A DNA stretch of 52,975 nt from the NCBI GenBank assembly GCA_036658935.1, contig JAVXDN010000001.1:1-52975 (forward strand), in the 5' to 3' direction. The position numbers and the translations under genes were made by a program. The notes beneath the pieces were generated by a model. The model was not told the DNA's origin and did no database searches. It was given only the letters and a program-made list of their open reading frames with translations. Shown in pieces: positions 29,546 to 52,975 of this stretch (its first letter is position 1; each line of letters starts with the position of its first letter). Source of the DNA: Bacilli bacterium (GTDB lineage: Bacteria > Bacillota_I > Bacilli_A > RF39 > UBA660).

Positions 29546-29605
29546 TGCCTTAATAATTACTAGATGATATAATTGATAATAGGAAAATGTAGAGAAGTAG
29601 GGAAT

Positions 29606-31255: not shown

Positions 31256-31341
31256 AATGGTGTTTTGTAAAAGTTTTGTGAAATATATACAATAAATTGT
31301 TAATAAATGATATACTAAATGAAAGTAAGAGAGGCGAGACT

Positions 31342-32271
31342 ATGGCAGCAAAAGTATTTAAAACGTTAGAGGAACAAATTAATATATTAAAAGATAAAGG
31401 TCTTAAGATAGAAGATGAAGAGACTACTAAATTAATCTTGCTTAGAGAAAATTACTTTTTTATAATGGGTTATAGAAGTGTGTTTTTAAAGACTGATGGA
31501 AGTAAAAAGTTTATTAATGGTACTACATTTAATGAGTTATATTCTGTATTCGTATTTGATAGGATGTTTAGAAATATTATATTTAAAAATTTGCTTATAT
31601 TTGAAAATAATTATAAATCGATTTTTAGTTATATGATTTCTATGAATTATGGATACAAGGAAAAAGAATATTTATCTACAGATAATTTTGTTCAAGATAA
31701 ATCTAGGATAAGTCAAATAAATGATGTTATTAGAAAAGTAAAAAGACAATTAAGAGTTAATGGAAGACAACATCAAGCGACTAGTCATTATTTAATGAAT
31801 TATGGATATATTCCTATGTGGATTGGAATAAAAGTAATAAGTTTTGGTTTAATGGGAGAAATGTTTAGCATACTAAAAAGGGAAGATCAGGAAAAATTAG
31901 CTTTGTATTTTGATGTTACAGCTGATAATTTAGAAATTTATTTACCTATTCTTGCTAATTATAGAAATTTATGTGCACATGAGGATATTTTATTTAATCA
32001 TTTTACTCAAAAATTAATTGATGATACTAAATATCATGAGTTGTTATATATTAAGAAAATAGATAATGAATATGTGTGTGGGAAAAATGATATTTTTGCA
32101 CTTATTATTATGTTAAAACAATTAATGAGTAAAGATGATTTTCAGATGATGATGAAAGAAGTTATATATGAGGCTGAGATTCTAGAAGGAAAACTTAAGT
32201 CTATTAAAATAGATGCAGTTCTTGAATGTATGGGATTTCCTGAAAATTATAAAGATCTTATGTATATATAG
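31342..32271 (+). CDS. Abi_2 family abortive-infection protein (AbiD/AbiF-like)
   Basis: N-terminal LEEQINILKDKGLKIEDEE...LLRENYFFIMGY and central YRNLCAHEDILFN resemble the Abi_2 signatures (RNxxAH). The ATG at 31342 is preferred. Confidence 0.7.
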   Translation: MAAKVFKTLEEQINILKDKGLKIEDEETTKLILLRENYFFIMGYRSVFLKTDGSKKFINGTTFNELYSVFVFDRMFRNIIFKNLLIFENNYKSIFSYMISMNYGYKEKEYLSTDNFVQDKSRISQINDVIRKVKRQLRVNGRQHQATSHYLMNYGYIPMWIGIKVISFGLMGEMFSILKREDQEKLALYFDVTADNLEIYLPILANYRNLCAHEDILFNHFTQKLIDDTKYHELLYIKKIDNEYVCGKNDIFALIIMLKQLMSKDDFQMMMKEVIYEAEILEGKLKSIKIDAVLECMGFPENYKDLMYI

Positions 32272-35131: not shown

Positions 35132-35159
35132 AAAAAGGCTTAATTAATTAGGCCTTTTT
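35132..35159. terminator. Bidirectional terminator between convergent genes
   Basis: AAAAAGGCTTAA-ttaa-TTAGGCCTTTTT hairpin between the stops at 35127 and 35140. Confidence 0.55.
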
Positions 35160-36084
35160 CACATTTATTACCATAACAATCTATTAATTCTTTATTTCTT
35201 AATATTTTTATTATTTCACAATTATTAGGACATTTATTACACTCTTTTCCTAATGTTTCAAATTCTATATCTTTTATATTTAAGCTATATTTTTTATTGT
35301 CTTTATTTTTAGCTAATATTGCACATCCGAGAGCACCCATTAAATGCCCATCTTCATCAACTATTATATGTTCTTTTAATTCACTTTCAAAGAATTTTAC
35401 GACGCCTTTATTTTTACTTACTCCCCCCTGGAAGACAATAGGTGCTATTATTTTTTTGTTTTTACATACATTGTTTATGTAGTTAAGTACTATACTTTTA
35501 CATAATCCAGCGATTATATCTTCTTTTTTATATCCCATACCAGCTTTATGAATTAAATCACTTTCAGCGAATACAGTGCATCTAGCGGCTATTTTTGTTG
35601 GATTTTTACTTTTTAAAGCTTCATATCCGAAGTCTTCAACTTTTATATCTAGTCTTTTGGCTTGAGAAGATAAGAAACTTCCGGTTCCAGCTGCACATAA
35701 TGTATTCATTGCATAGTCAGTTACTATTTTATTTTTAAGTAATATTATTTTGGAATCTTGTCCTCCTATTTCTAGTATAGTTCTAACATTAGGATGCCTA
35801 GAAAGTGTACCTACTGCATGAGCGGTTATTTCGTTTTTAATTATGTTTGCATCTAGTAGAGTTCCTATTAATTTTCTTGCACTACCAGTTGATCCAATTC
35901 CGCTTACTGTAATATTTTTGTTTTTAATTTGTTGATTTAGTTTTTCTATTAATTCCTTAAGTGCTTTTATTGGATTTCCTGATGTTGGAATATAAGAGGA
36001 TGCTATTATTTTATTTTCTTCATTTATTATAACTCCTTTAGTGGATATACTTCCTACGTCAACTCCTAAATAATATCTATTCAT
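35140..36084 (-). CDS. BcrAD/BadFG-type ATPase (2-hydroxyacyl-CoA dehydratase activase-like) with Cys-rich C-terminal extension
   Basis: ASKHA phosphate-1 motif YLGVDVGSISTKG. Cluster-bridging Cys contexts CAAGTGSF and ARCTVFAESD. Extra tail CNKCPNNCE...DCYGNKCEKG. Confidence 0.85.
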   Translation of the reverse strand: MNRYYLGVDVGSISTKGVIINEENKIIASSYIPTSGNPIKALKELIEKLNQQIKNKNITVSGIGSTGSARKLIGTLLDANIIKNEITAHAVGTLSRHPNVRTILEIGGQDSKIILLKNKIVTDYAMNTLCAAGTGSFLSSQAKRLDIKVEDFGYEALKSKNPTKIAARCTVFAESDLIHKAGMGYKKEDIIAGLCKSIVLNYINNVCKNKKIIAPIVFQGGVSKNKGVVKFFESELKEHIIVDEDGHLMGALGCAILAKNKDNKKYSLNIKDIEFETLGKECNKCPNNCEIIKILRNKELIDCYGNKCEKGLIN

Positions 36085-37144
36085 TTAATTTTTCCTTTCT
36101 CATTTTTAACATATCATAGAATGCTTCTAATCTTGTGTTAATTCCTATGTCTGAATTTTGTGATTCAAATGTTAGAAACATTATTGGAATATTATTATCT
36201 TCACAAATAGATTCAAGTACTGGTATTACGCCTATTTCTGGAGTACACCCAAAAGGTTTTATATGAATTATTCCATCATATTTATGTCTTTTTGCCCAAG
36301 TGACTCTATAAACATTAGCGGATGCATCTGCGCCCATATTATATTTAACATATTTTTTTATAAATTTCATGCGTAATTTATCAAATAAAAAAGTAAAAAC
36401 TAAGAGATATGATGCATTGGTAAATCTTTTTATAATAAATCCCATATTAATTAATGTTTCTTCTAAGTTAGAAGATGATGAAACCTCAATATTAGAATAT
36501 AATTCTCCAATTATACATATTTTTAAATTATTAGAATTTTGGATTTTTTTAAGTGATTTTATTTTGTTTATAACTTTAAAGTTGTTAACAATTAATTTTA
36601 GTATACTTTTATTTGATTTGAAATAAGTGTCACTTTTAGTACATATTTTATCTATTTTATCTTTTTCTATTATAAGCACTTTGTTTCGTCTTATATAATC
36701 TTCTAATTTATCACTAAAATAAGCATATATGAGTGTATAAATAATTACTTTTATAAATTTATAATATGTAAGGTGTGGATTAATATTTAAAAATATTTTA
36801 TATGCTCTAGATATAGAAAAGTTTCCTTCTTTCATTAAATTGTAAAAGTTAAATTTATATCCTAAATCTTTTAATATTTGCATTTGTACTTCACAATAAT
36901 AACCAAACTTACATCCTCCACCTATATGGATTATAGTATCTGCTTTATTTTCTAGACTCTCTATAAAATTACCTAAATTGTATTTAAAAGGTAAGCATAT
37001 TAAATTAGGTGAATATTTTTCACCTAGTGCTATTGTTTTTTTTGTTATTTTAGGTGGAACTAATATTTCTTTATTAGTTATATTTTTTAATAGATATTCT
37101 ATTTCTTTATAATAAGGACCAAAGTGAGCGAATGTTATTTTCAT
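36077..37144 (-). CDS. HgdB/D-component-like subunit (acyl-CoA dehydratase activase-related protein)
   Basis: 355 aa; Cys contexts NLICLPFK, GGGCKFGYYCE and KPFGCTPE typical of the 2-hydroxyglutaryl-CoA dehydratase D-component superfamily; 8-nt overlap with the ATPase gene. Confidence 0.6.
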   Translation of the reverse strand: MKITFAHFGPYYKEIEYLLKNITNKEILVPPKITKKTIALGEKYSPNLICLPFKYNLGNFIESLENKADTIIHIGGGCKFGYYCEVQMQILKDLGYKFNFYNLMKEGNFSISRAYKIFLNINPHLTYYKFIKVIIYTLIYAYFSDKLEDYIRRNKVLIIEKDKIDKICTKSDTYFKSNKSILKLIVNNFKVINKIKSLKKIQNSNNLKICIIGELYSNIEVSSSSNLEETLINMGFIIKRFTNASYLLVFTFLFDKLRMKFIKKYVKYNMGADASANVYRVTWAKRHKYDGIIHIKPFGCTPEIGVIPVLESICEDNNIPIMFLTFESQNSDIGINTRLEAFYDMLKMRKEKLNE

Positions 37145-38046
37145 TTATTTTCCTCGTTTTTTAATATATCACAGAAACTTTCTAATCTAGTTATTAATCC
37201 TGCGTTTTCTGATAGTTCATCAAATATTATATTTATTATAGGAATGTTTTTAACTTTTCTTAAAATCATTTCATTAACTAAAGAATCATTTCCACAAGGG
37301 AAAGCACTTATTAATATTATTCCATCTACTTTTTTAATATCATTAATTAATGAATTAACATAAATTTTATTATATGAAAAATACATAGTTGGCATTAATT
37401 TTTTATATAATTTTTTATTTTTAGTGTTATTAGTTGATAATATTACTTCCAAACCTTCATTATTTAGAAAGTCTATTAGGAATCCTCCAATAAATTCTTC
37501 TTTTAAATTATAACTGTGACCTACTAAAAGTATTTTTTTTCTAGTACTTGAAAAAGATAATGATCTTATAGCGTATTGTTTTTGTTTTTTTTCTCTAACA
37601 GTTCTTTTAGCATTTACGTATGCTTTTTTAGCTTTAGAATACGATATTCCAAGTGTTTGAGCTATATTCATAAATTCACTATATTCATTTTTATTATTTT
37701 TTATATCTAAATTATAATCTAATAATTTTTGTTTTTTAAATATATTTGATGTTATATCATATAACGCATTAAAGTTAGTGCAAACAACCCCAGTTTTTTC
37801 TATACTTCCAATTCTAGGAACTAATATATACTCACATTTATCTTTTAAATAGTCCACGTGTCCTATAAATATTTTTAAAGATAAACATGCTTCATCATTC
37901 ATAAGATGCGTTCCTCTAGCTATTATTTTTTTATTAGTTATGGGACTTAATATATAACTTATATCTAAATTATCAAAGAAAGAACACCAGAATTCTCCAT
38001 ATTCATAGTATAGTAAAGCTCGTGGAATACCTATAGTAGTTTTCAT
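37141..38046 (-). CDS. DUF2229-like subunit (CoA enzyme activase uncharacterised domain)
   Basis: N-terminus IGIPRALLYYEYGEFWCSFFDNL matches the DUF2229 signature as I recall it; 4-nt overlap with the next gene. Confidence 0.6.
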   Translation of the reverse strand: MKTTIGIPRALLYYEYGEFWCSFFDNLDISYILSPITNKKIIARGTHLMNDEACLSLKIFIGHVDYLKDKCEYILVPRIGSIEKTGVVCTNFNALYDITSNIFKKQKLLDYNLDIKNNKNEYSEFMNIAQTLGISYSKAKKAYVNAKRTVREKKQKQYAIRSLSFSSTRKKILLVGHSYNLKEEFIGGFLIDFLNNEGLEVILSTNNTKNKKLYKKLMPTMYFSYNKIYVNSLINDIKKVDGIILISAFPCGNDSLVNEMILRKVKNIPIINIIFDELSENAGLITRLESFCDILKNEENK

Positions 38047-40088: not shown

Positions 40089-40100
40089 TGAGTTTTTTTT
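40071..40100. terminator. Bidirectional terminator between convergent operons
   Basis: AAAAAGACTCAT-ttata-ATGAGTTTTTTTT; spans the 10-nt gap between the stops at 40088 and 40099. Confidence 0.55.
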
Positions 40101-41172
40101 AATTGAATTTTAATATTGAACTATTGTTTATAATTGATGTATTGTATAGAAATATGATATCTTTGTTATTAAAGTTTATTATTTCTTTTATTACACTCAT
40201 GCTTATATATCTTAAATCTATAAGAGTTATTTTACTATAGTTCTCTATTAATAATGGTGCTAAGGAACTGGTAAAAGAATCTCTAAATATAATTAATTCT
40301 CTATTATTATTTTGTTTATTATTGTTGAGTGTTACAAGTGAAGTAGGACCAGATAGAAATATATTATATGAATCTATTTTATTTAATTCATCTTTTTTAT
40401 AAATAGTATTTCCTTTGTTTTTTTCATAGTGTGTTACTTTTACGTTATCTACTATATCATTTGTTAAATATGTTAAAGTATCTTTTTCAATATTTAATGC
40501 TGCTTTACTATATAAAGCTCCTGTAAAATTATTATAGTTATTTTCTTTATAATTAAAAGTAAAGTTTTGATTTAATGCTTTTCCTAAAGTATTGAGTACT
40601 TCTTTTAAGTTTTCTTGTCTCCAATGGATATCTGTTTTATAATAATCTTTTAAGCTAAGAGAAGATGTAATATCTATATATTTTGTATTTATTTTCGATA
40701 ATTTATTAATCATTAAATCATAATCTAATTTTAAATGTGTATCGTTTAAGTAGTAGTTTTTATCAGGTATAATACTATAATATATATTATTATTTGTAGA
40801 GTTAATATCTATGAAGTTATTAACATTTTTAATATAGTTGTTTATAGCTTGTTCATTTAATTTATAATTCATTTCAAATATATAATTATCTTTTATAAAT
40901 ATATTATTGTTGTCAGTTGAGGCAAATAAATATTTATTTGTTAATGCTTTTATATTTCTAAAATTATCTCTTAATGGAAAATGATCTAATATATAGTTAT
41001 CTAGTGAGGTGAAGTATGATCCATCTATTACTTTATTAAATGTAGGAGATGGAAAAGATGCTAAATGTCTTCTTTCTGAAACTGATATATCTTTATCTTT
41101 TAATATTATGCTAAATATTAATCCCATGAATAGTACTATAGAGAATAATATTGTTGTTATTTTATTTTTCAT
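40099..41172 (-). CDS. DHHW / AlgJ-AlgX-like SGNH-fold O-acyltransferase partner protein
   Basis: N-terminal TM, SERRHLASFP segment, D-x-H-W motif (KTDIHWRQE); immediately downstream of an MBOAT gene. Confidence 0.6.
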   Translation of the reverse strand: MKNKITTILFSIVLFMGLIFSIILKDKDISVSERRHLASFPSPTFNKVIDGSYFTSLDNYILDHFPLRDNFRNIKALTNKYLFASTDNNNIFIKDNYIFEMNYKLNEQAINNYIKNVNNFIDINSTNNNIYYSIIPDKNYYLNDTHLKLDYDLMINKLSKINTKYIDITSSLSLKDYYKTDIHWRQENLKEVLNTLGKALNQNFTFNYKENNYNNFTGALYSKAALNIEKDTLTYLTNDIVDNVKVTHYEKNKGNTIYKKDELNKIDSYNIFLSGPTSLVTLNNNKQNNNRELIIFRDSFTSSLAPLLIENYSKITLIDLRYISMSVIKEIINFNNKDIIFLYNTSIINNSSILKFN

Positions 41173-41181
41173 TTTACCTCC

Positions 41182-42570
41182 TTAAAACCTAAAGTATAGA
41201 AATGGATTGAATGATGAATCAATTAAGAATGCTGTAACTACTAGTAATATAATAATTAATATGAATGGTTCTAATATCTTTATTATTTTGTTATCTTTAT
41301 ATTTATTGTATATATTTTTAATTAATGGAGTAGATGAGATAATTGAAATTAATAATATTACTATATAACTTCTAAAGAAGTATAATGTTTCATTTGTAAT
41401 TAATGGTAAATTATTAAATCCAAACATTGATTTTAAGTATGTAAATATTTCCAATATATTATTTGAATTAAATATTATAAAGCTTATTAATATTATAAAT
41501 AATGTATATATATGAGATATTACTTTATGTTTATCTAGATATTTTTTTAAGAATATTTTTTCTATTAATAAAATTACTGCAAAGAATAATCCCCATATAC
41601 AAAAGTTCCAACTAGCACCATGCCATAAGCCAGTTATTAACCATACTATTAGTATATTTCTTATATATTTAGGTTTTGAAACTCTACTTCCTCCTAGAGG
41701 AATATATATATAATCTTTTAACCAACTTGATAATGATATATGCCATCTTCTCCAAAAGTCTGTAATTGATGAAGAAATAAATGGATAATTAAAGTTTTCT
41801 AAAAATTTAAAACCAAACATTGAACCTAGTCCTATAGCCATGTCACTGTATCCTGAAAAATCAAAGTATATTTGTAGAGTGAATGCGACTGCATTTAACC
41901 AATAGGTAGTGATTGATGGATTAATTACATCAAATAATGTTGTACTAAGTACTCCTAAAGTATTTGCAATTAATACTTTTTTTGAAAGGCCAATAATAAA
42001 TCTTTTTATACCATATGAAAATTTATCAAATGAAGTTTCTCTATTATTTAATTCATTATGTATTGTTTCATATCTAACTATAGGTCCCGCTACTAATTGA
42101 GGAAAAAGACAAATATAAGTAGCGAATGATAATATATTTTTTTCTACATTTACTTTTCTTTTATAAACATCTATTACATATGATAATGCTTGAAAAGTAA
42201 AAAAACTAATTCCTAAAGGTAAGGCAATATGTAAAAGAGAAAAGTTTGTACTGAATATTGAATTTATATTAGTTATTAAAAAGTCTGTATATTTAAAATA
42301 GATAAATAACGATACATTAGATATTACACATAAAGTTAATAATATCTTTTTTAAATTTATTTTATTAGTTTTATCTATTAGTATGGCAAAAGTATAATTA
42401 ATTAAGCATGATAATATTAATAACCATAAATAATCTGCTTCTCCATAAAAATAGAATAAAAGACTAAATAAAAGAAGAACTATGTTTTTGTATTTCTTAG
42501 GAGCTAAAAAGTATACTAATAAAAGTATGCTTAAAAAGAAATATATAAATGTTATGCTTGAAAATACCAT
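41182..42570 (-). CDS. MBOAT family membrane O-acyltransferase (AlgI/DltB/PatA-like), copy 1
   Basis: FWRRWHISLSSWLKDYIYIPLGG and catalytic-His context GLWHGASW; 462 aa polytopic. Confidence 0.9.
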   Translation of the reverse strand: MVFSSITFIYFFLSILLLVYFLAPKKYKNIVLLLFSLLFYFYGEADYLWLLILSCLINYTFAILIDKTNKINLKKILLTLCVISNVSLFIYFKYTDFLITNINSIFSTNFSLLHIALPLGISFFTFQALSYVIDVYKRKVNVEKNILSFATYICLFPQLVAGPIVRYETIHNELNNRETSFDKFSYGIKRFIIGLSKKVLIANTLGVLSTTLFDVINPSITTYWLNAVAFTLQIYFDFSGYSDMAIGLGSMFGFKFLENFNYPFISSSITDFWRRWHISLSSWLKDYIYIPLGGSRVSKPKYIRNILIVWLITGLWHGASWNFCIWGLFFAVILLIEKIFLKKYLDKHKVISHIYTLFIILISFIIFNSNNILEIFTYLKSMFGFNNLPLITNETLYFFRSYIVILLISIISSTPLIKNIYNKYKDNKIIKILEPFILIIILLVVTAFLIDSSFNPFLYFRF

Positions 42571-42594
42571 AGTTCCTCCAGTTTTAGTAAATAA

Positions 42595-43059
42595 TTATTT
42601 TAAATCTTTAAAATTCTTTTCTATTGTTTCTCTATTTTCATTAACCATTATTAAAAGAATTAAGTTTCCTTTTGATAATACTCTAACGTCTTCTTTTGGT
42701 ACTTCTACACATATCCATTTTCTTGGATTCACTTTTTCTTGTATTTCTTTTTTAGCTTTTTCTATATCTGCATTATCATTCATACGTATTAATACTACAG
42801 AATGTGGAATTGATCCTATCATTGGTTCTGATGCTATCGCTTCTTTATAGTCTAGGGATTCTACTCCTAAATATGAAGATAGATTTTCTTTAGTTACATC
42901 TGCATTCATAAGTTTTGGTAGATTGTCTTCTTTAATTCCAGAATACATTTTAGACATAATGTCTTTTAAGTCTCCTTCGATATTTTTCTCTCCTTGGTTA
43001 CATCCAGTAAGTAGTAAAGCTAGTAAAGCACTTAGGACAATTATTGATATTTTTTTCAT
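42595..43059 (-). CDS. Lipoprotein (DUF4358-like)
   Basis: Lipobox LLLTGC at residues 15-20; domain of about 130 aa resembling the DUF4358 proteins I recall as common next to MBOAT/DHHW pairs in Clostridia. Confidence 0.5.
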   Translation of the reverse strand: MKKISIIVLSALLALLLTGCNQGEKNIEGDLKDIMSKMYSGIKEDNLPKLMNADVTKENLSSYLGVESLDYKEAIASEPMIGSIPHSVVLIRMNDNADIEKAKKEIQEKVNPRKWICVEVPKEDVRVLSKGNLILLIMVNENRETIEKNFKDLK

Positions 43060-43071
43060 GTTACCTCCTTA

Positions 43072-43494
43072 TTAGTTACATTTTGAAAAAATTTTTAGTT
43101 CTTTGTCTTTTAAGACAAGTAGTGTATCTTTGTCTAATTTATTTTTATATACTCTATGTCCTTTTAAAGGTTTATCTTTTATTGTAAAAAGATAGTTTCC
43201 TTTATTTTGTTTTAATGAAATATTATTAGTATCAATAAAACAATTATCTTTATAATGAATTATGTCATTTGTTCTTTTTAAGGTCGCTACAGGAGTGGAA
43301 TCATCATTATAAATTTGTTTTGGGATAAATAAAGTTATACAAAAACTTATTAGAACAACAAAAACCCCTAGTGGAATAAAAGATAAAAACGGGCTTATTT
43401 TTTTATGATTTAAAATGTTATTAAGCATTTTATCTTTTGATTCTTTGTCTGGAAGAATTGTATTTAGTGCATTTTTTATATTTTTATTTTGCAT
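43072..43494 (-). CDS. Single-pass membrane protein, candidate anti-sigma factor
   Basis: Overlaps the sigma gene 3' end. It has a cytoplasmic N-terminus of about 40 aa, one TM and an exodomain of about 80 aa. No ZAS HxxxCxxC motif. The start is ambiguous (43503/43500/43494). Confidence 0.4.
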   Translation of the reverse strand: MQNKNIKNALNTILPDKESKDKMLNNILNHKKISPFLSFIPLGVFVVLISFCITLFIPKQIYNDDSTPVATLKRTNDIIHYKDNCFIDTNNISLKQNKGNYLFTIKDKPLKGHRVYKNKLDKDTLLVLKDKELKIFSKCN

Positions 43495-43975
43495 ATACAT
43501 CATCCTTTTGTAAAATATTTTTAAGAAGTTCTCGTCCTCTTCTTAAATATGATCTAACTGTTGATGCGTTTATATTTAATTTTGTTGCAATTTCATCACT
43601 TGTATAACCTTCATAATAGTACATATAAATTATTATTTTATATTTTTTAGGAAGGGATAACAATATATTTAATGTTTCATCTGTATGATCATTAATTGGT
43701 AGAATTTCATTATCTATATTTTTGTTTTTTCTATACCAAGTTTTTAAAGAATTTTTACAATGATTTGATGCACTAAGAACTAGCCATGCCTCTAAGTGTT
43801 CTTCGTTTTCGTATATTTTATTAGCTCGTATAAATTTTTCAAAAACAGTTGAGACTGCATCTTCTGTATCATCTTTGTTTTTCATATATAAATAGCAAAT
43901 CCTATATATTTTATCAACATATTTATTATAAACTTCAACAATCTCTTTGTTCGATCTAAACAAAGAGTTGGACAT
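43484..43975 (-). CDS. ECF-type RNA polymerase sigma-70 family factor
   Basis: 163 aa; region 2 (DDTEDAVSTVFEKFIR) and region 4 HTH (YTSDEIATKLNINASTVRSYLRRGRELL). Confidence 0.8.
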   Translation of the reverse strand: MSNSLFRSNKEIVEVYNKYVDKIYRICYLYMKNKDDTEDAVSTVFEKFIRANKIYENEEHLEAWLVLSASNHCKNSLKTWYRKNKNIDNEILPINDHTDETLNILLSLPKKYKIIIYMYYYEGYTSDEIATKLNINASTVRSYLRRGRELLKNILQKDDVYAK

Positions 43976-44090
43976 TTAAACCACTCCCTCCATATACTAA
44001 ACAATTATATATATAAGTTTGTTGCATTATATTTTGTTTCTTTATATATTTTAACTTGTTTTATGATATTTTGAAAGGTTTATATGTATA

Positions 44091-44135
44091 TTCTTAAGTA
44101 GAAAGTTATGTATTTACTTGATAATTACTTAAGAA
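44091..44135. repeat. Perfect 10-bp inverted repeat in the divergent control region
   Basis: TTCTTAAGTA (44091-44100) and TACTTAAGAA (44126-44135), separated by 25 nt. Confidence 0.85.
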
Positions 44136-44175
44136 AAAGTGATAATGAATATATAAAAGTTATTGTTTTATTAGT

Positions 44176-44204
44176 TTGCAACTAAAAAGTGCTTAAATTA
44201 ATAT
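44176..44204 (+). promoter_or_regulatory. Candidate sigma-A promoter for the ATPase/Dlt-like operon
   Basis: TTGCAA (44176-44181), 17-nt spacer, TAATAT (44199-44204); would give a 5' UTR of about 140 nt. Confidence 0.3.
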
Positions 44205-44344
44205 AAAAGTTATTTACTGTAACTATATATAAATGTTATTATTTATTAAAGGAATGTATTAGTATATTACACCTTTGTAAGAAATATTGTGTTAAATTAT
44301 TTTAAATGTTATTATTATGTGGCTAAAGAGAGGTGAATAGTAGA

Positions 44345-46696
44345 ATGAAAACTAAGATACAAAGAGATTTATTTGGATTAAGTAATGAGGAAGTATTAAA
44401 AAGAGTTAATGAAGGAAAAATAAATATTGATACTTCTATTAAAACTAAAACTAATAAACAAATTATTAGAGAAAATATATTTACTTTATTTAATGTACTT
44501 AATTTTATTTTTGCTATACTTTTGATAGTAGTTGGGTCTTTTAAAGATTTGTTTTTTATGTGGTTAATTGTAGTTAATAGTGTTATTGGTATAGTTCAAG
44601 AGATTAGATCAAAGAATGTTATTGATAAGTTATCTTTACTTGCTTTAAAAAAAGTAAATGTTATTAGAAATGGTAAAGAGATAAGTATAGGTATTAATGA
44701 TATAGTTATAGATGATATTATGGTTCTTAGATCTGGTAATCAAATTGCAGCGGATGCGATTGTTATTAAAAATGAATGTGAAGTTAATGAATCTTTGCTT
44801 ACAGGTGAGGCAGATTCAGTTACTAAAAGTATTGGGGAAACTTTATTTTCTGGTAGTTATTTATCTAGTGGTGAAGTAATGGCTAAAGTAATTCATGTAG
44901 GTGAGGATAATTATGTAGCTCAAATTAGTAAGGATGCTAAAAAGATTAAAAGAAGTGAGTCTCAAATTATGAAGGCAATTAATAGAATAGTTGCTATTGT
45001 TTCTGTTATTATTATTCCTTTAGGTATTATGTTTTTTATAAGACAATTTAATTTAGATGGTTTTACTTTTAGTGATGCTGTAGTTCATACGGTAGCTGCT
45101 TTAATTGTTATGGTTCCTCAAGGTCTTGTTTTACTTACTAGTGTTGTTCTTGCTATTAGTGTTATAAGATTAGCTAAGCATAAGGTTTTAGTACAAGATT
45201 TATATAGTATTGAATCGTTAGCTCGTACTGATATAATTTGTCTTGATAAAACTGGAACTATAACTGAGGGAAGTATGATAGCGGATGATGTTATAGGGAT
45301 GGGTAAATATAATTATAATGATGCTTTAAATCTTCTCGGAAGTTATGCATCTTCTATAAATGATAGTAATCCTACTATTAATGCTATTAGGGAAATTGCT
45401 TCTAATAAAGAGTTTAGTGATATAAAAGAAATGTTTTCATTTTCTTCTGATAAAAAGTATTCTGCTATTGCTCTTAAAAAGGGTGGATATGTACTTGGAG
45501 CTCCGGATTTTATAGGGAATGAAACTAAAAAAGAACAAACTGAAATTAATGAATATTCTAAAGATTATAGAGTTTTAGGTTTATATAAGACTGAAAAAGA
45601 AATTAAAAAGAATTGTTTACCTGATGATTTATCTTTAATATGTTTAGTTTTACTTAAAGATAAGATTAGATATTCAGCTAAAAAAGTTCTTGATTATTTT
45701 AAGAACGAGGGTGTTGGTGTTAAGATTATTTCTGGAGATCATGTTAGTACTGTTGTAAATATAGCTAGAGTTTTAGAGATTAATGGATATGAAAAAGCTA
45801 TTGATTTATCAAGTGTTAAAACAGATGAAGAGCTTGAAAAAGCAGCTATAGAATATACAATATTTGGTAGAGTTACTCCTCTTCAAAAGAAAAAATTAGT
45901 TATTGCTTTAAAAAATGCTGGTCATACAGTAGCGATGACTGGAGATGGAGTTAATGATGTTATGGCTTTAAAAGAGGCTGATTGTGGTATAGCGATGGCT
46001 GCTGGATCTGATGCAGCGCGTAATGTGAGTGAGCTTGTACTACTTGATAATGATTTTGATTCTATGCCTAAAGTTGTAGATGAAGGAAGACGTAGTATTA
46101 ATAATATAGAACGTTCTGCAAGTTTATTTCTAAGTAAAACAATTTATGCTACATTATTAATAATGTTCTTCTTATTTGTTACTCTTCCGTATCCTTTTAA
46201 ACCCATTCAACTTACTTTAGTTGATATGGTAGTTATTGGAATACCTTCATTTATATTAGCTTTAGAGAAAAATACAAATAGAGTTAAAGGGAAATTTTCT
46301 AAAAACATTTTATATAAATCTCTACCTACAGCCTTGATGGTATTTTTCAATATTGTGATATTTAGTATATTGCAAAAGTTTAATGTATTTGATCAGAACA
46401 CTATTTCAACATTAGCGATATTCTCTACAGCGTTTATTGGATTTGAATTACTTTATACTATTAGTGAGCCTTTTAATAATTTAAGAACTGTATTATTCTT
46501 TTCTATGATAATATTATTTTCTTTACAGTTTATTTTCCTACATGATTTTTATTCAATCGCTAAGCTAAGTTTTGCTTCTGGTAGTGTAGCGGTAGTTATG
46601 ATGATAGTTGATAATTATTTATATAAATATGTGATTAAAGCAGTTAAATTTGTAATAGATCATATAAATTTTAAAAAAGAAAGAGAAGTAGTGTAA
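44345..46696 (+). CDS. P-type ATPase (HAD-IC, P2/P3-like architecture) with non-canonical transport-site residues
   Basis: Cation_ATPase_N-like start, TGEA actuator motif, DKTGTIT phosphorylation site and TGDGVNDVMALKEADCGIAM hinge. TM4 reads VPQGL instead of PEGL. The ATG at 44345 is preferred over the GTG at 44333. Confidence 0.9.
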   Translation: MKTKIQRDLFGLSNEEVLKRVNEGKINIDTSIKTKTNKQIIRENIFTLFNVLNFIFAILLIVVGSFKDLFFMWLIVVNSVIGIVQEIRSKNVIDKLSLLALKKVNVIRNGKEISIGINDIVIDDIMVLRSGNQIAADAIVIKNECEVNESLLTGEADSVTKSIGETLFSGSYLSSGEVMAKVIHVGEDNYVAQISKDAKKIKRSESQIMKAINRIVAIVSVIIIPLGIMFFIRQFNLDGFTFSDAVVHTVAALIVMVPQGLVLLTSVVLAISVIRLAKHKVLVQDLYSIESLARTDIICLDKTGTITEGSMIADDVIGMGKYNYNDALNLLGSYASSINDSNPTINAIREIASNKEFSDIKEMFSFSSDKKYSAIALKKGGYVLGAPDFIGNETKKEQTEINEYSKDYRVLGLYKTEKEIKKNCLPDDLSLICLVLLKDKIRYSAKKVLDYFKNEGVGVKIISGDHVSTVVNIARVLEINGYEKAIDLSSVKTDEELEKAAIEYTIFGRVTPLQKKKLVIALKNAGHTVAMTGDGVNDVMALKEADCGIAMAAGSDAARNVSELVLLDNDFDSMPKVVDEGRRSINNIERSASLFLSKTIYATLLIMFFLFVTLPYPFKPIQLTLVDMVVIGIPSFILALEKNTNRVKGKFSKNILYKSLPTALMVFFNIVIFSILQKFNVFDQNTISTLAIFSTAFIGFELLYTISEPFNNLRTVLFFSMIILFSLQFIFLHDFYSIAKLSFASGSVAVVMMIVDNYLYKYVIKAVKFVIDHINFKKEREVV

Positions 46697-48210
46697 TGAT
46701 TAAGTGTATATGTGATTTATTAGATAAGAATGTTTTATCAAATGGTGAAAAAATAGCTTTTAAGGAGATAAATAGAAGTATTACTTTTAATGATTTTCAA
46801 ATGAGAAGTTACTCTATTTCTACTTTTTTGTGTAAGTGGGAAAGAGATTCTATTGTTATTTTCATAGATAAAGGGATTGATGCATTGTGTTCTATGATTG
46901 GAGCGGTTGGTAGTAATAATTATTATACTGTAATGGATGTTAATACACCGAAAAATAGAATAATTGATATTATTTCTCAACTTGAACCTAAAGTTATTCT
47001 AACTACAAAGAAATATGAAAGTATTTTAAAAGATTTTCAAATAGAAAATTATATTTGTTTAGAAGATATTAATGATAATGTAGATAAAAAGTTATTATTA
47101 AATAGAAGAAATAATTTAATTGATACTGATAGTATGTATGTGTTATTTACATCAGGGTCTACTGGTTCTCCTAAGGGTGTAGTAGTATCACATAAAGCAT
47201 TACTCAGCTATATAGAGTGGTTTATAGAAGAATTTAAAATAGATAATAACACTGTTTTTGGTAGTCAAACTCCACTTTATTTTAGTATGTCTGTGTCTGA
47301 TGTTTTTTCTACTATTGTACTTGGCGCTACTATGTGTTTGATTCCTAAGATGTATTTCTCTTTTCCTATTAAATTAATAGAATATTTAAATAATGAAAAA
47401 GTTAATACTATATATTGGGTACCTTCTGCTTTAAGTATTATTTATAATTTTAAAGCTTTAGATCAGTTGAAAATGAATTATATTAATAAGATATTATTTG
47501 CAGGTGAAGTAATGCCTATGAAAGTACTTAATTATTTTAGAAGTCAGTTACCTTCTGTTAAATATTTTAATTTATTTGGTCCTACAGAAACAACTGATAT
47601 ATGTACATTTTATACTGTAGATAAAAAGTTTGAAGATTATGATGTTCTTCCTATTGGAAAACACTGTAATAATGTTGATGTTATAATTTTAAAAGATGAT
47701 AATACTGAAGCTTTAGGTGAAGAATCTGGAGAGTTATGTGTTAGAGGTTCTTTTCTAGCGAGTGGTTATTATAAAAATACTCAAAAAACTAGTGAAGTTT
47801 TTATACAAAATCCTTTAAATAACTATTATCCTGAAGTTATATATAAAACGGGGGATATAGTTAAATATAATTCAGAAGGTGAACTTATTTATTTATCTCG
47901 TAAGGATTTTCAAATAAAACATATGGGATATAGAATAGAACTTGGAGAAATTGAGGCAAAAGCCGGAAGTATTGATGGTATTAGTAGTGTAGCGTGTATA
48001 TATGATAATTTAAATGATGAAATTATATTATATTTTGTATCAACAGTTATTGAAAAAAATGATGTATTATTAAGTCTTGTATCATTATTACCAAAATATA
48101 TGATACCTAGTAAAGTTATAAGAATAGAAAGTATGCCTTATAATTCTAATGGTAAAATAAATAGAAGTGTTTTAAAAGAAAAAGGAGAGAATAAAGTATG
48201 CAAAAATTAA
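46696..48210 (+). CDS. DltA-like carrier-protein ligase (ANL adenylating enzyme)
   Basis: 504 aa; core motifs A3 LFTSGSTGSPKGV, A5 NLFGPTE, A7 YKTGD, A8 DFQIKHMGYRIELGEIE, A10 NGKINR. The start ATG overlaps the ATPase TAA (TAATG). Confidence 0.85.
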   Translation: MIKCICDLLDKNVLSNGEKIAFKEINRSITFNDFQMRSYSISTFLCKWERDSIVIFIDKGIDALCSMIGAVGSNNYYTVMDVNTPKNRIIDIISQLEPKVILTTKKYESILKDFQIENYICLEDINDNVDKKLLLNRRNNLIDTDSMYVLFTSGSTGSPKGVVVSHKALLSYIEWFIEEFKIDNNTVFGSQTPLYFSMSVSDVFSTIVLGATMCLIPKMYFSFPIKLIEYLNNEKVNTIYWVPSALSIIYNFKALDQLKMNYINKILFAGEVMPMKVLNYFRSQLPSVKYFNLFGPTETTDICTFYTVDKKFEDYDVLPIGKHCNNVDVIILKDDNTEALGEESGELCVRGSFLASGYYKNTQKTSEVFIQNPLNNYYPEVIYKTGDIVKYNSEGELIYLSRKDFQIKHMGYRIELGEIEAKAGSIDGISSVACIYDNLNDEIILYFVSTVIEKNDVLLSLVSLLPKYMIPSKVIRIESMPYNSNGKINRSVLKEKGENKVCKN

Positions 48211-48422
48211 TTGATGTTTTTAATGATGTTAAACCAGGGATTGATATAAATTCTAATTCTTTAATAGATGATGGTATTATTGATTCTTTTGATATTATTA
48301 CTCTTATATCTTACGTTAATAGTGAGTTTGATATAGAGTTTCCAGTATCAGAGATATTACCTGAAAATTTTAATAGTATTAAGAGTTTGTATGAAGTTAT
48401 AAACAAAATAGTAAATAAGTAG
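48198..48422 (+). CDS. DltC-like acyl/aminoacyl carrier protein
   Basis: 74 aa; phosphopantetheine site GIIDSFDIITLI (compare DltC GLLDSFGTVELL); 13-nt overlap with the ligase gene. Confidence 0.8.
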   Translation: MQKLIDVFNDVKPGIDINSNSLIDDGIIDSFDIITLISYVNSEFDIEFPVSEILPENFNSIKSLYEVINKIVNK

Positions 48423-48437
48423 TAGGGGTGTTTTAAT

Positions 48438-49952
48438 ATGTCAGTAGTATCTTTAGAGTTTTGGGTATTTATATTTGTAACTGTATTACTTTATTTTCTT
48501 ATGCCTAAAAAAATAAAATGGATAGTTTTATTAGTTTCTAGTATAGTTTTTTATATTATTTCCTCTAAGGTACTTAGTATTTATCTTTTTGTAAGTGTGA
48601 TTAGTATTTATGTAGGAGCTTTAGGAATAAGTAAAATTAATAATATTCCTGTAACTGATGAGAATAAGAAAAGAAATAAAAGAAATAAAAAAATAATTTT
48701 GTTAATTATTATTCTTATTAATATAGGAATGCTTTTATATTTAAAATATTATAATTTTTTTGGTGAGATTATAGGGTTAATCGTTAATAGTAAGTTTAGT
48801 ATTAAGACAATATTGTTACCTCTAGGAATTTCATATTATACACTTCAAGGGATTAGTTATGTAGTTGATGTTTACAGAGGTAAGACAGAGGCAGATAGGA
48901 ATATTGGAAGGCTATCTTTGTTTTTAATATTTTTTCCACAAATGACTATGGGACCGATTAGTAAATATTCATCTCTTGCTAATCAATTGTATGAAGGACA
49001 TAAAATTAATTATAATAATTTTAAATATGGATTTACTTTAATATTATTTGGATTATTTAAGAAGTTGGTAATTGCTGATAGGGCTGGAATGTTTGTTAAT
49101 GAAGTATTTAAAATAAATACAGGTGGATTAAATGTAGTTTTAGCGATCGTTTTATATACAATTGAGATATATGCAGAATTCTCTGGATATATGAATATAA
49201 TTACTGGTATTTCAAAAATGATTGGAATAGATTTGCCACTTAATTTTAATAGACCTTTCTTTTCTAAGAGTATCGCTGAATTTTGGAGAAGATGGCATAT
49301 TACTTTAGGTGTTTGGTTAAAAGATTATATATTTTATCCTATTTCTTTATCTAAGTATATTAGTAAAATCGTTTTTTTCACTAGAAAACATTTACCTAAA
49401 AGTGCATCTAGGTTTATTGCTTCTGCTTTACCTTTATTCTTCGTTTGGTTTTTAAATGGATTATGGCATGGGGCGAGTATAAAATATATAGTTTATGGAT
49501 TGTATTATTATATTTTAATGATGATAGGATTAGCATTTAAACCTTTGTTTGATAAATTAATAGCTAAATTCAATATTAATACTGAATCTCTATTTTATAA
49601 GGTTTTTCAAGTACTTAGAACTATTTTAATTGTTTTAATAGGTATGATGATATTTAGATCTAAGAGTTTAGGTAGTGCTTGGAGTATGTTTATTTCTATA
49701 TTTAATTTTAGTACACCATTTTCTTTATTTGGATTACATTTAATAGATTTTATAGTTTTATTTGTAGGGGTGAGCGTTATGTTAATAGTTGGTATAATAG
49801 GTGAAAAGGGAAAAGATCCTTTTGAGGTATTGTGCAAGAATGGTTCATATGTGCAGATTTTTGTTTATGTATTTTTAATATTAAGTGTAGTTATTTTTGG
49901 AATATATGGATACCATTTTAATGCTAGTGATTTCATATATGGACAGTTTTAA
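48438..49952 (+). CDS. MBOAT family membrane O-acyltransferase (DltB-like), copy 2
   Basis: FWRRWHITLGVWLKDYIFYP and GLWHGASIKY; 504 aa polytopic. Confidence 0.85.
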   Translation: MSVVSLEFWVFIFVTVLLYFLMPKKIKWIVLLVSSIVFYIISSKVLSIYLFVSVISIYVGALGISKINNIPVTDENKKRNKRNKKIILLIIILINIGMLLYLKYYNFFGEIIGLIVNSKFSIKTILLPLGISYYTLQGISYVVDVYRGKTEADRNIGRLSLFLIFFPQMTMGPISKYSSLANQLYEGHKINYNNFKYGFTLILFGLFKKLVIADRAGMFVNEVFKINTGGLNVVLAIVLYTIEIYAEFSGYMNIITGISKMIGIDLPLNFNRPFFSKSIAEFWRRWHITLGVWLKDYIFYPISLSKYISKIVFFTRKHLPKSASRFIASALPLFFVWFLNGLWHGASIKYIVYGLYYYILMMIGLAFKPLFDKLIAKFNINTESLFYKVFQVLRTILIVLIGMMIFRSKSLGSAWSMFISIFNFSTPFSLFGLHLIDFIVLFVGVSVMLIVGIIGEKGKDPFEVLCKNGSYVQIFVYVFLILSVVIFGIYGYHFNASDFIYGQF

Positions 49953-49970
49953 AAAAGGAGTATGCGTATA

Positions 49971-51128
49971 ATGAAGAAAATTAAGGAACCAATAATAATA
50001 GTAATAATAATTGTTATAGTTGTATCTTCTCTTTTATTAATATCTAGGATATTCATTCCTAAGTGGATTAATAAGAATGAGGGAAGTATTACTTATATTA
50101 TGAGAGGACTTTATTCAGAAAAAAAGAATTCAATGGATGTTATGTTTATGGGTAATAGTCAGATTTATAGTGGAGTTAATCCTATGGAATTATGGAATGA
50201 TTATGGAGTTAGTTCTTATGTGTATGCTTCTCCTGGACAAAGAAGTTCAACTACTTATTATATGTTGAAAGAGGCTTTAGAGTATCAACATCCTAAAGTT
50301 ATAGTAATGAATGTAGAAAATTTATTTTATAAGACTACAGGAGCTAAAACAGCAGCTAGGAAAGTTTTTGATAATATGAGATGGGATAAAGTAAAGGTTG
50401 AGGCAATAATGGATAAGTCTTATCAAAATACCCCAGGTGATGTTATAAGTTATATGTTTCCACTGTTATGGTATCATTTTAGGTATAAGGAATTAAAGTT
50501 AGAAGATTTTAATTTATCTTTAGCTAAAATTCATCATCCTTATAAAGGATATAGTTTACATTCAGAGATTAATCCTAAAGTTAAAGATTTGGATTATATG
50601 GAAGTTACTGATGATAAAGCTGAGTTTAATCCTAAAGGACAAGAGTATTTAGAAAAAATAATTGATATTTGTAATAAAGAAAATATTAAAATAGTTTTAG
50701 TTCAAGTTCCAGCTGGAGATTTTTGGAATTATCCTATGCATAAGACTATGAGTGAATATGCAAAACAAAAGAATTTAACTTTTATTGATATGAATTTAAT
50801 GTTAGATGAATTAAAATTTGATTGGAATACTGATACATATGATAAGGGTACACATTTAAATATATATGGCTCTGACAAAGTTACTTCATTTTTAGGAGAA
50901 TATCTTACAAAAAATTATGCATTAGTTAATCATAAATTTGATAAGAATTATAGTGATTGGAATACTCAATATAAAGATTATCTAAAAGGTAGAGAAGAAG
51001 ATATAAATAGAACAAATAAGGGTATTATTAAATCAAGTAGTAATAGTTTTTATAATTTCAATGAAAGAGGAAAAAATATTCATGAAAAACATAGAAGGAA
51101 TAAAGTACAGTATAGAGAAAAGAAATAA
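49971..51128 (+). CDS. Membrane-anchored SGNH/DltD-like acyltransferase-esterase
   Basis: N-terminal TM, block I-like FMGNSQIYSG, block V-like DKGTHLNIYG. It sits in the position of dltD. The ATG at 49971 has better RBS spacing than the one at 49962. Confidence 0.55.
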   Translation: MKKIKEPIIIVIIIVIVVSSLLLISRIFIPKWINKNEGSITYIMRGLYSEKKNSMDVMFMGNSQIYSGVNPMELWNDYGVSSYVYASPGQRSSTTYYMLKEALEYQHPKVIVMNVENLFYKTTGAKTAARKVFDNMRWDKVKVEAIMDKSYQNTPGDVISYMFPLLWYHFRYKELKLEDFNLSLAKIHHPYKGYSLHSEINPKVKDLDYMEVTDDKAEFNPKGQEYLEKIIDICNKENIKIVLVQVPAGDFWNYPMHKTMSEYAKQKNLTFIDMNLMLDELKFDWNTDTYDKGTHLNIYGSDKVTSFLGEYLTKNYALVNHKFDKNYSDWNTQYKDYLKGREEDINRTNKGIIKSSSNSFYNFNERGKNIHEKHRRNKVQYREKK

Positions 51129-51588
51129 TGAAACTGCTCATCTTCAAGGTATAGAAATATTAGATAAACTTTTAAGAAATGAAAATATTTGTGATTATAC
51201 TATTGGTTATACTAATAATTTAAAACCTTTTATTGATAATAATAAATATATTAGTGTTTCTCATACAGAGGAATATGTTGTTTGTGCTGTATCGGATAAG
51301 AATATAGGGATAGATATTATAAAAATAAGGGAAAAAGATGATAAAGTAATGAAATATTTTTTTTCTAAGGATGAAAGAAATTATGTTAATAGTTCTGAAG
51401 ACAGTGGTAAAGCTTTTTCTTATGTTTGGACTTTAAAAGAGGCTTTTATAAAATTAAATGGGGATAAGTTAAAAGATATAAACAATTATAATGTAATTAT
51501 AGATAATAAAATAAATATAGAAAATGCAAGTTATTATTTTATTGAAGATATTAAGGATTATGTTATATGTGTAATCAAAAGTAATTAA
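51082..51588 (+). CDS. Sfp-type 4'-phosphopantetheinyl transferase (short)
   Basis: Motifs GIDIIKI and WTLKEAFIKLNG (W-x-x-KE-A-x-x-K), SVSHTEEYVVCAV; overlaps the upstream gene by 47 nt. Confidence 0.8.
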   Translation: MKNIEGIKYSIEKRNNETAHLQGIEILDKLLRNENICDYTIGYTNNLKPFIDNNKYISVSHTEEYVVCAVSDKNIGIDIIKIREKDDKVMKYFFSKDERNYVNSSEDSGKAFSYVWTLKEAFIKLNGDKLKDINNYNVIIDNKINIENASYYFIEDIKDYVICVIKSN

Positions 51589-51643
51589 GAATTTTAATAG
51601 AATAAGTTTTTATTTAATTGTATAATAACTTTAGGTGAGTTTT

Positions 51644-51958
51644 ATGGATAAAGTAGTAGAAGAAATTACTAAGTTTAATGAAGAAAGAGATTGGGATAAG
51701 TTTCATACTGAAGAGAATTTGGCAGTGTCTATTTCTATTGAAGCGGGAGAACTTTTAGAATGTTTTCAATGGAATAAACAATACGATAAGGATGAGGTAT
51801 GTGATGAACTTGCAGATGTAGTGAGTTATTCTATTATGTTAGCACAGAGGTTAAATGTTGATTTAGAGACTATTATTTTGAATAAAATCGAAAAGAATAG
51901 AAAGAAATATCCTATAGAAAAATCCAGAGGAGTTAGTACTAAATATAATAAGTTATAA
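51644..51958 (+). CDS. MazG-like nucleotide pyrophosphohydrolase (DCTPP1-like)
   Basis: 104 aa; FNEERDWDKFHT...EAGELLECFQW...ELADVVSY metal-binding E-x-x-E / E-x-x-D helices. The ATG at 51644 follows AGGTGAG. Confidence 0.8.
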   Translation: MDKVVEEITKFNEERDWDKFHTEENLAVSISIEAGELLECFQWNKQYDKDEVCDELADVVSYSIMLAQRLNVDLETIILNKIEKNRKKYPIEKSRGVSTKYNKL

Positions 51959-51960
51959 GC

Positions 51961-51992
51961 TAAACTATAAATATTTTAATTATAGTTTTTTT
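51961..51992 (+). terminator. Intrinsic terminator after the MazG-like gene
   Basis: AAACTATAA-9 nt-TTATAGTTT followed by a T-run. Confidence 0.5.
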
Positions 51993-52081
51993 TAATAAAT
52001 TAATAATTTTTATACAAATGATGTATATATTGATTTATAATGTTATAATTTAAGTATAAGTTTTGGATTGGAGTTTATTTT

Positions 52082-52975
52082 ATGATTATTAAAGATAATA
52101 AAGAATTAAAACAAAAGGATTTTATAAATGAGAAAGAATTACAAAATTATTTTGAAAAAAATCTTTCTAAAATTCTTGATTTTCAGTTTATTGATACAGA
52201 ATTTGCAGTTGGTAATTTTAGAATAGATACATTAGCTTTTGATAACGAGACAAATGCATTTAGAATTTTAGAATATAAGAATATAAGAAGCCGTAGTTTA
52301 GTTGATCAGGGCTATACTTATTTAAAGTTATTACTTGAGAGAAAAGCAGATTTTATATTAAAATATAACGAAAAGACTAATTCCAATTTAAGAGTTAACG
52401 ATGTAGATTGGACTCAATCTAGAATTGTATTTGTGTCTCCAAGTTACACTGAATATCAGTTAAATGCAACAGATTTTAAAAATATTCCTTTTGATTTAAT
52501 TAGAGTAACAAAATATGAAAATGATATAGTTGATGTGGATTTTATAAAAAAATATAGCAATGTTAATGTTAATGAGTTTATGACTGACTCAAAGCAAAAG
52601 GAAGTTAATCAAGAAGTTGTAGTATATACTGAAGAAGATCATTTAAGTAAATTACCAGATAATATAAGAAATTTATATGAATCACTTAAGAGTGAAATAT
52701 TAGAATTAGATGATATAGATATAGTTGTGCAAAAACATTATATTTCATTTAAGGGTAGAACGAACATAATTGATGTAGTACTAAATAATAGTAAATTAAA
52801 AATATATATTAATATGAAAAAAGGAACGTTAGAGGATTATATGAATATAGCCAAAGATATTTCTAGTCTTGGCCATTTGGGCAATGGAGATTATGAAATC
52901 GATGTATTTAATGTTGATGATATTTATAAAGTAATTCCTTTAATTAAACAATCAATTATTAAAAATAAGAAATAA
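52082..52975 (+). CDS. PD-(D/E)xK nuclease-like (NucS/DUF91-type N-domain) protein with DUF5655-like C-domain
   Basis: FRIDTLAFDNETNAFRILEYKN fits a D...E-x-K nuclease core. The C-terminal half resembles DUF5655 as I recall it. The stop is the last codon of the window. Confidence 0.45.
   Translation: MIIKDNKELKQKDFINEKELQNYFEKNLSKILDFQFIDTEFAVGNFRIDTLAFDNETNAFRILEYKNIRSRSLVDQGYTYLKLLLERKADFILKYNEKTNSNLRVNDVDWTQSRIVFVSPSYTEYQLNATDFKNIPFDLIRVTKYENDIVDVDFIKKYSNVNVNEFMTDSKQKEVNQEVVVYTEEDHLSKLPDNIRNLYESLKSEILELDDIDIVVQKHYISFKGRTNIIDVVLNNSKLKIYINMKKGTLEDYMNIAKDISSLGHLGNGDYEIDVFNVDDIYKVIPLIKQSIIKNKK

Follow-up and report, generated by a model that had tools for sequence, protein, structure and literature searches.

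Do six tightly packed genes in a Bacilli genome make up a single machine, and is that machine a teichoic-acid D-alanylation (Dlt) system? The question arises from the window analysed here, a stretch of 52,975 nucleotides (nt) from a Bacilli bacterium of the GTDB lineage RF39; UBA660 (assembly GCA_036658935.1, contig JAVXDN010000001.1, positions 1–52,975 of the forward strand), in which six co-directional genes are indeed present at 44345–51588, where a preliminary description made from the DNA letters alone had placed them. That description saw a Dlt-like operon with a P-type ATPase at its head, in the position of dltX, and a dedicated Sfp-type phosphopantetheinyl transferase (PPTase) at its tail. 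Our own reading, which we hold at a probability of roughly 0.7, is that genes 2–6 would constitute a carrier-dependent system—built on a membrane-bound O-acyltransferase (MBOAT) together with an SGNH-fold partner—that esterifies an extracytoplasmic envelope polymer, with the ATPase as a bystander. What stands of the Dlt-like operon is the core logic of adenylating enzyme, carrier, MBOAT and DltD fold, in the non-canonical order A-C-B-D; the ATPase as a component of it does not.

The conserved core and its acyl-shuttle motif

The second of the six genes (46696–48210, + strand) encodes an adenylating enzyme of the nonribosomal peptide synthetase (NRPS)/DltA type (504 aa; PF00501), which has the A10 lysine and scores 293.8 bits on TIGR01733 (cut-off 317.4); on the DltA models it reaches 276 bits (TIGR01734, cut-off 560) and 294 bits (NF003417, cut-off 476). 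It is followed by a carrier protein of 74 aa (48198–48422, +; PF00550 at 22.9 bits, just above the cut-off), for which DltC is the best-named match, albeit at 26–32 bits against cut-offs of 52–68, and whose phosphopantetheine serine is Ser30 in the motif IDSFD. The fourth gene (48438–49952, +) specifies an MBOAT acyltransferase of 504 aa that matches PF03062 and, across residues 10–407, the DltB model TIGR04091 (165 bits, cut-off 375), with its catalytic histidine, His287, in FWRRWH. Some 100 residues extend past the DltB model, comprising two hydrophobic helices and a terminal hexapeptide, FIYGQF (codons at 49932–49949, +), of the form FxYxxF.

The fifth gene (49971–51128, +) encodes a membrane-anchored protein of 385 aa that had been labelled SGNH/DltD-like. 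Profile searches of Pfam and NCBIfam confirmed the domain assignments of the other five proteins and returned no model match for this one, PF04914 (DltD) included; the label is supported instead by a family alignment, an AlphaFold model and Foldseek. The alignment of 27 sequences has an invariant G61-x-S63, D288, D291 and H295, and the protein starts with an N-terminal transmembrane (TM) helix. The AlphaFold model has a mean pLDDT of 88.8 and finds the DltD structures 6pfx, 3bma and 7dxm as its best matches in the PDB (E-values 7e-6 to 4e-4, probability 1.0), ahead of SGNH hydrolases and PatB. We favoured the start at 49971, which has the better ribosome-binding site, the ATG at 49962 being too near its GGAG; an exact-sequence look-up of the protein found a match from the former start and nothing from the latter. 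Searched against representatives of 50%-identity clusters, a profile of the family matched 15,565 of them at E ≤ 1e-3 and 5,058 at E ≤ 1e-30, and on these matches we regard it as a very large, unnamed set of MBOAT partners. One distant match carries PF27429, which a local Pfam scan did not find in the window protein.

We assembled 66 loci in which a relative of the fifth protein is encoded, each from a different GTDB species, taking up to 10 kb on each side, and searched all six window proteins against them; the locus search was seeded with an 11-sequence alignment of the fifth protein, the 27-sequence version being too diverse to seed it. The fifth gene adjoins an MBOAT gene in 59 of the 66, a carrier gene is conserved beside the MBOAT gene in 29, and adenylating enzyme, carrier, MBOAT and fifth gene occur together in 26. 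The closest loci keep the A-C-B-D order, with adenylating enzymes 48–56% identical. As read from these loci, the conserved unit is an adenylating enzyme, a carrier, an MBOAT and a membrane-anchored DltD-fold SGNH protein. In some loci (L028, L033, L048 and L057) the fifth gene is present twice, or there are two pairs of MBOAT and fifth gene. Such pairs also occur outside the Bacillota, in Legionella steelei (L051), in Verrucomicrobiota (L075) and in an actinobacterial metagenome-assembled genome from the Atopobiaceae (L045), the last of which additionally has a carrier and an adenylating enzyme.

The last of the six genes (51082–51588, +) encodes a small Sfp-group PPTase (168 aa; PF01648 at 53 bits), which presumably converts the carrier to its holo form. 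Its best NCBIfam match is AusB at 62 bits, with HetI, AcpT and EntD at 20–36 bits, all below cut-off, and AcpS at 23 bits. A PPTase gene lies 3′ of the core in only five related loci (L010, L013, L019, L022 and L024), and we class it as an accessory gene that some relatives have and others lack.

It is the MBOAT's C-terminus that sets this core apart. FxYxxF has been defined as an “acyl shuttle” motif, with acyl-tyrosine chemistry shown for PatA and DltX; the Dlt pathway has it C-terminally on the microprotein DltX, where its tyrosine carries D-alanine from DltB to DltD, and in PatA and other MBOATs that use acyl-CoA it is fused to the enzyme on two extra TM helices, the MBOAT/SGNH pathways other than Dlt being acyl-CoA users without a carrier protein (PMC12148441). 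In the related loci, each of the 59 intact partner MBOATs terminates in F-x-Y-x-x-[F/Y], and no free-standing small open reading frame (ORF) ending in FxYxxF exists in the window. There is no dltX gene here because the motif is fused to the MBOAT's C-terminus. The preliminary description had rightly noted that no DltX-like ORF is present; its placing of the ATPase in the dltX position has to be given up, as the ATPase does not fill the place of DltX. The idea of the ATPase as a DltX replacement was rejected on the fused motif of the 59 MBOATs and the lack of a small ORF with the motif.

On its sequence features, then, the cluster is a hybrid: carrier-dependent like Dlt, and with a fused shuttle motif like PatA. 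With DltXABCD of Bacillota it has in common a stand-alone DltA/NRPS-type adenylating enzyme, a carrier, about 75 aa long, that has a phosphopantetheine serine, an MBOAT with a conserved histidine, a single-pass DltD-fold protein, the FxYxxF tyrosine shuttle and, in relatives, closeness to teichoic-acid genes. It differs in bearing that shuttle on two extra MBOAT helices with no DltX microprotein, in having a serine at the position of DltA Asp197, in the order of its genes, in the dedicated small PPTase of some members, and in its scores: all four core proteins fall under the Dlt family cut-offs, and the fifth-gene protein is without PF04914. With PatA/PatB, and likewise AlgI/AlgJ, it shares the C-terminal FxYxxF of the MBOAT on two added TM helices and the extracytoplasmic SGNH-fold partner; PatAB-type systems, however, use acyl-CoA and have neither carrier nor adenylating enzyme (PMC12148441), whereas this cluster has both, together with a PPTase. 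In the literature searched, which did not cover subscription journals, we came across no MBOAT described as both carrier-dependent and fused to the motif.

A rough neighbour-joining tree separated a purely carrier-less half from another half that contained every carrier-linked MBOAT. The window contains a second MBOAT, 36% identical to the first, which ends in FLYFRF and has no carrier protein; it falls in the carrier-less half.

Cargo, acceptor and proposed reaction path

Which acid does the adenylating enzyme load? Its A4 motif reads FSMSVSD, the aligned stretches of the LgrA adenylation domains FDGSALD and FDISVAE; amino-acid adenylation domains have FDxSxxD/E at A4, and Ser197 here stands opposite the aspartate of both LgrA domains. 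In a DltA pocket for D-alanine, Cys268 selects the D-isomer and Asp197 binds the amino group; in the Bacillus cereus enzyme, Asp197 does so by a hydrogen bond (PMC8972799). The assignment of an Asp-to-Ser change, made from the two LgrA domains and the literature on DltA Asp197, holds well beyond the window: an alignment of the nine intact closest genomic orthologues has Ser197 in every one, and of the 120 best homologue clusters of the enzyme 115 contain YFSMS and 107 contain GPTExTDIC, which has an aspartate at pocket position 330. The pocket code reads roughly S-M-S-S-L-A-L-D-I-K. Because the amino-binding Asp197 is replaced by a serine that is conserved across the clade, the cargo is probably something other than D-alanine, for which an omega-amino acid (e.g. 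beta-alanine) or a hydroxy acid are only guesses. In more distant loci (L027, L029, L039 and similar), a module of MBOAT, fifth gene and carrier occurs in rearranged gene order with adenylating enzymes that resemble fatty-acyl-CoA ligases, and the module, as judged from these sequences, seems to accept different loading enzymes.

The same serine bears on one alternative, that the cluster is the organism's own teichoic-acid D-alanylation (dlt) operon, diverged and rearranged. That would suit the best-named matches—DltA, DltC and DltB—as well as the DltD structures at the top of the structural matches of the fifth protein and the teichoic-acid genes that flank the cluster in relatives. Yet the three named matches all score far under their equivalog cut-offs, and the likeness to DltB appears generic to bacterial MBOATs, since the second, carrier-less MBOAT of the window scores 161 bits on the same model. 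With Asp197 replaced by serine throughout the clade, the shuttle motif fused to the MBOAT in place of a DltX, and a different gene order, we consider a diverged dlt operon highly improbable.

For the carrier-dependent esterification system that we prefer, the acceptor is most likely a teichoic-acid-type glycopolymer, judging from the gene neighbourhoods of relatives. The clusters there have as neighbours PF04464 CDP-glycerol glycerophosphotransferases, a TagGH-like pair of ABC-2 transporter genes and glycosyltransferases, and tblastn located teichoic-acid-type genes in L010, L011, L012, L016, L017, L020, L026 and L042. The same machinery might act on another envelope molecule, for instance peptidoglycan, a capsule or exopolysaccharide, or a glycolipid of the membrane, and MBOAT/SGNH pairs do modify peptidoglycan, alginate and cellulose (PMC12148441). 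The window itself is without teichoic-acid genes, and the fifth-gene family occurs also in Legionella and Verrucomicrobiota, neither of which is known to make teichoic acids. Several of the closest loci, on the other hand, adjoin CDP-glycerol glycerophosphotransferases and TagGH-like transporters, and an acceptor other than teichoic acid is in our estimate the less likely choice, though one with an appreciable chance.

The reaction path that we propose runs as follows. The PPTase would add phosphopantetheine to Ser30 of the carrier, upon which the adenylating enzyme would activate a carboxylic acid, probably not D-alanine, and load it onto the carrier as a thioester. The MBOAT, through His287, would receive the carrier's acyl group at the cytoplasmic face, and the group would pass through the MBOAT tunnel to the enzyme's own C-terminal FIYGQF tyrosine (Tyr501) at the outer face. 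The DltD-fold protein would there accept it on Ser63 and transfer it to a hydroxyl of the polymer.

The P-type ATPase at the head of the six genes

The first gene (44345–46696, +) is preceded by an AGAGAGG ribosome-binding site 10 nt 5′ of its ATG at 44345 and encodes a P-type ATPase of 783 aa (PF00122, PF00702), in which CLDKTGTITEG contains the DKTGT phosphorylation motif and TGDGVNDV the GDGVND hinge. The protein exceeds the cut-off of TIGR01494, meets that of no NCBIfam equivalog and has more than 7,900 homologues at E ≤ 1e-50; these matches place it in a very common family of cation-pump-like, stand-alone proteins of about 780 aa. The best 60 solved-structure matches listed are P2-/P3-type cation pumps, at about 180–190 bits, with no P4 ATPase among them, and no P4 model is among its NCBIfam matches. 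With such pumps (Listeria LMCA1 and the alpha subunits of the H/K- and Na/K-ATPases) it has in common DKTGT, GDGVND, the E1-E2 actuator and about ten TM helices; with about 780 aa it is the shorter protein, and this copy has PQGL instead of PEGL. The family has the TM5 lysine, without the TM6 aspartate of Ca pumps. An ATP-driven flipping step, as had been suggested for this ATPase, finds no support, the best solved structures being P2-type cation pumps. A flippase reading was rejected on those matches to cation pumps and the absence of P4 enzymes from the best 60.

Does this ATPase nevertheless travel with the cluster? Among the 66 related loci, 65 have no P-type ATPase within 10 kb and none has a co-directional one; the sole locus with such a gene has it on the opposite strand, 4 kb away and 27% identical. 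The gene 5′ of the ligase varies between loci, and no upstream gene is conserved. Looked at from the other side, the five closest relatives of the ATPase (53–57% identity) sit in housekeeping surroundings, after MurT/GatD or RNase Y, and in those five contexts there are no dlt-like genes nearby. The neighbourhood survey thus came out as the preliminary description itself had said would speak against an ATPase integrated into a Dlt-type system: it is not conserved beside the cluster. We take it for a lineage-specific neighbour, whose link with the cluster is, on these sequence comparisons, most likely incidental. It would be the organism's copy of a widespread stand-alone family of cation-pump-like proteins, placed upstream by a lineage-specific rearrangement.

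A rival reading makes the ATPase, in this lineage, a true working part: it might move cations or protons in step with changes to the charge of the wall, or it might be a pump repurposed through altered ion-site residues and co-translated with the ligase. The junction itself counts in favour of this. At 46694–46698 the sequence TAATG joins the TAA of the ATPase gene to the overlapping ATG of the adenylating-enzyme gene. Terminator-like sites were not found anywhere in 43400–52975, by a scan that demands G+C-rich stems, and from the overlap and this result the ATPase gene is probably co-transcribed with the cluster here. Two sequencing runs yielded three further Logan contigs, assembled separately, that match the window at 99.94–99.98% across 42341–52975, and one of these, L079, covers the junction of sigma factor, ATPase, ligase and carrier genes; the gene arrangement is not an assembly artefact, because a separately assembled contig spans the ATPase–ligase junction.

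The ATPase also has residues of its own. Its TM4 motif is MVPQGL, with glutamine at residue 259, against PEGL in 19 of 19 relatives examined, and its TM6 reads LTLVD, with aspartate at residue 627, against LTLIS, with serine, in the 19 relatives; the single ion-site carboxylate appears, from this comparison, to have been relocated from M4 to M6. PQGL and LTLVD are identical in contig L079 and are therefore not sequencing errors. These substitutions, seen in this ATPase only, can be counted for a working part. Set against it are the missing adjacency in the related loci and around all five nearest ATPase relatives, the stand-alone state of the remaining family and the absence of a P4-type flippase from the solved-structure matches; the divergence of the ATPase (57% identity at best) is, moreover, like that of the cluster genes (46–56%), as in ordinary orthology, with no sign of a specialised paralogue. 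A working part in the system is accordingly a role that we find improbable for it.

Several points weigh against our overall reading of genes 2–6 as an esterification system with the ATPase as a bystander. We infer the substrate, the acceptor and the transfer from carrier to MBOAT, with the chemistry taken from the Dlt and PatAB paradigms, and what the sequences themselves show is which genes and motifs are present and how far they are conserved; as regards the acceptor, the lack of teichoic-acid genes in the window counts here as well. The Foldseek TM-scores of the fifth protein to DltD are modest (0.37–0.41), although the probabilities are 1.0. For an Sfp-type enzyme the PPTase is short, and all its family scores are below cut-off; as to the dedicated Sfp-type PPTase of the preliminary description, the gene does follow the cluster and does match PF01648, while its length, its scores against the Sfp group and its presence in few relatives leave that label only partly upheld. 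The glutamine in the TM4 PEGL motif and the aspartate in TM6 could mark a changed function of the ATPase. Finally, the stop/start overlap and the absence of a terminator make co-expression of the ATPase very likely, and a lineage-specific functional link is possible.

Surroundings of the cluster and implications

The remaining junctions also proved to be as first described. The adenylating-enzyme and carrier genes overlap by 13 nt, gaps of 15 nt and 18 nt precede the MBOAT gene and the fifth gene, and the fifth gene overlaps the PPTase gene by 47 nt; the TAATG junction was likewise reproduced. The window, a contig from a metagenome-assembled genome, has a G+C content of about 25%, and the neighbouring genes are chromosomal housekeeping genes (rplM, rpsI, and those for lysyl-tRNA synthetase, Dus, HtrA and diacylglycerol kinase).

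Between the ATPase gene and a divergent operon with an extracytoplasmic function (ECF) sigma factor lies an AT-rich intergenic region of 369 bp (43976–44344), delimited by the ORF layout, which presumably holds the promoter or promoters. A promoter scan was uninformative in DNA of 25% G+C, with 79 sites against 77.8 expected. A co-directional MazG-like gene (51644–51958, +; PF12643) begins 55 nt 3′ of the PPTase gene and may be on the same transcript as the cluster; MazG had zero matches across the 66 related loci and so is not kept with it. Just 3′ of the MazG-like gene, at 51962–51996, inspection by eye found an AT-only hairpin with a 9-bp stem followed by a run of eight U residues. It is weak (−5.5 kcal/mol, z −1.5) and invisible to a consensus scan that requires G-C pairs, and it may be the terminator of the entire unit.

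The divergent operon 5′ of the ATPase (40099–43975, −) has five genes, for the ECF sigma factor, a possible anti-sigma factor (a small protein predicted to have a TM segment), a DUF4358 protein, the second MBOAT and a DHHW-family protein; within it, 40099–42570 (−) holds a carrier-less MBOAT pair of the general PatAB/AlgIJ kind. The operon looks like an envelope-stress-controlled O-acylation module, and its arrangement resembles sigV-rsiV-oatA of Bacillus subtilis. As it has an MBOAT of its own, the window holds two different MBOAT systems back to back.

Two further groups of genes stood out elsewhere in the window. At 29573–32271, between rpsI and htrA, an ABC-ATPase-like protein of 560 aa precedes an Abi_2 (abortive-infection-like) protein, a pair that may be a small defence insertion. 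At 35140–38046 (−), a BadF/BcrAD-type activase ATPase, a protein that matches HGD-D weakly and a DUF2229 protein form a cluster that resembles a 2-hydroxyacyl-CoA dehydratase/activase module.

MBOAT/SGNH systems have been split in two, into Dlt, with a carrier and a separate DltX, and the others, with acyl-CoA and a fused motif (PMC12148441, JBC 2025). The cluster described here, along with many relatives in gut Clostridia and Bacilli, would combine both designs. It may represent a widespread class of envelope acylation in gut Bacillota, in which an adenylating enzyme and carrier, in place of acyl-CoA, supply a fused-motif MBOAT, the clade of the window installing an acyl group other than D-alanine, in view of its conserved serine at the amino-binding position and its conserved aspartate at pocket position 330, and sister clades with fatty-acyl-ligase-like enzymes installing others; this wider proposal is tentative, and we put it at somewhat less than even odds. 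If true, it would mean a new chemical decoration of wall polymers. If the cargo is not D-alanine, abundant gut bacteria would bear overlooked wall-polymer esters, which could affect surface charge, resistance to antimicrobial peptides and recognition by the host.

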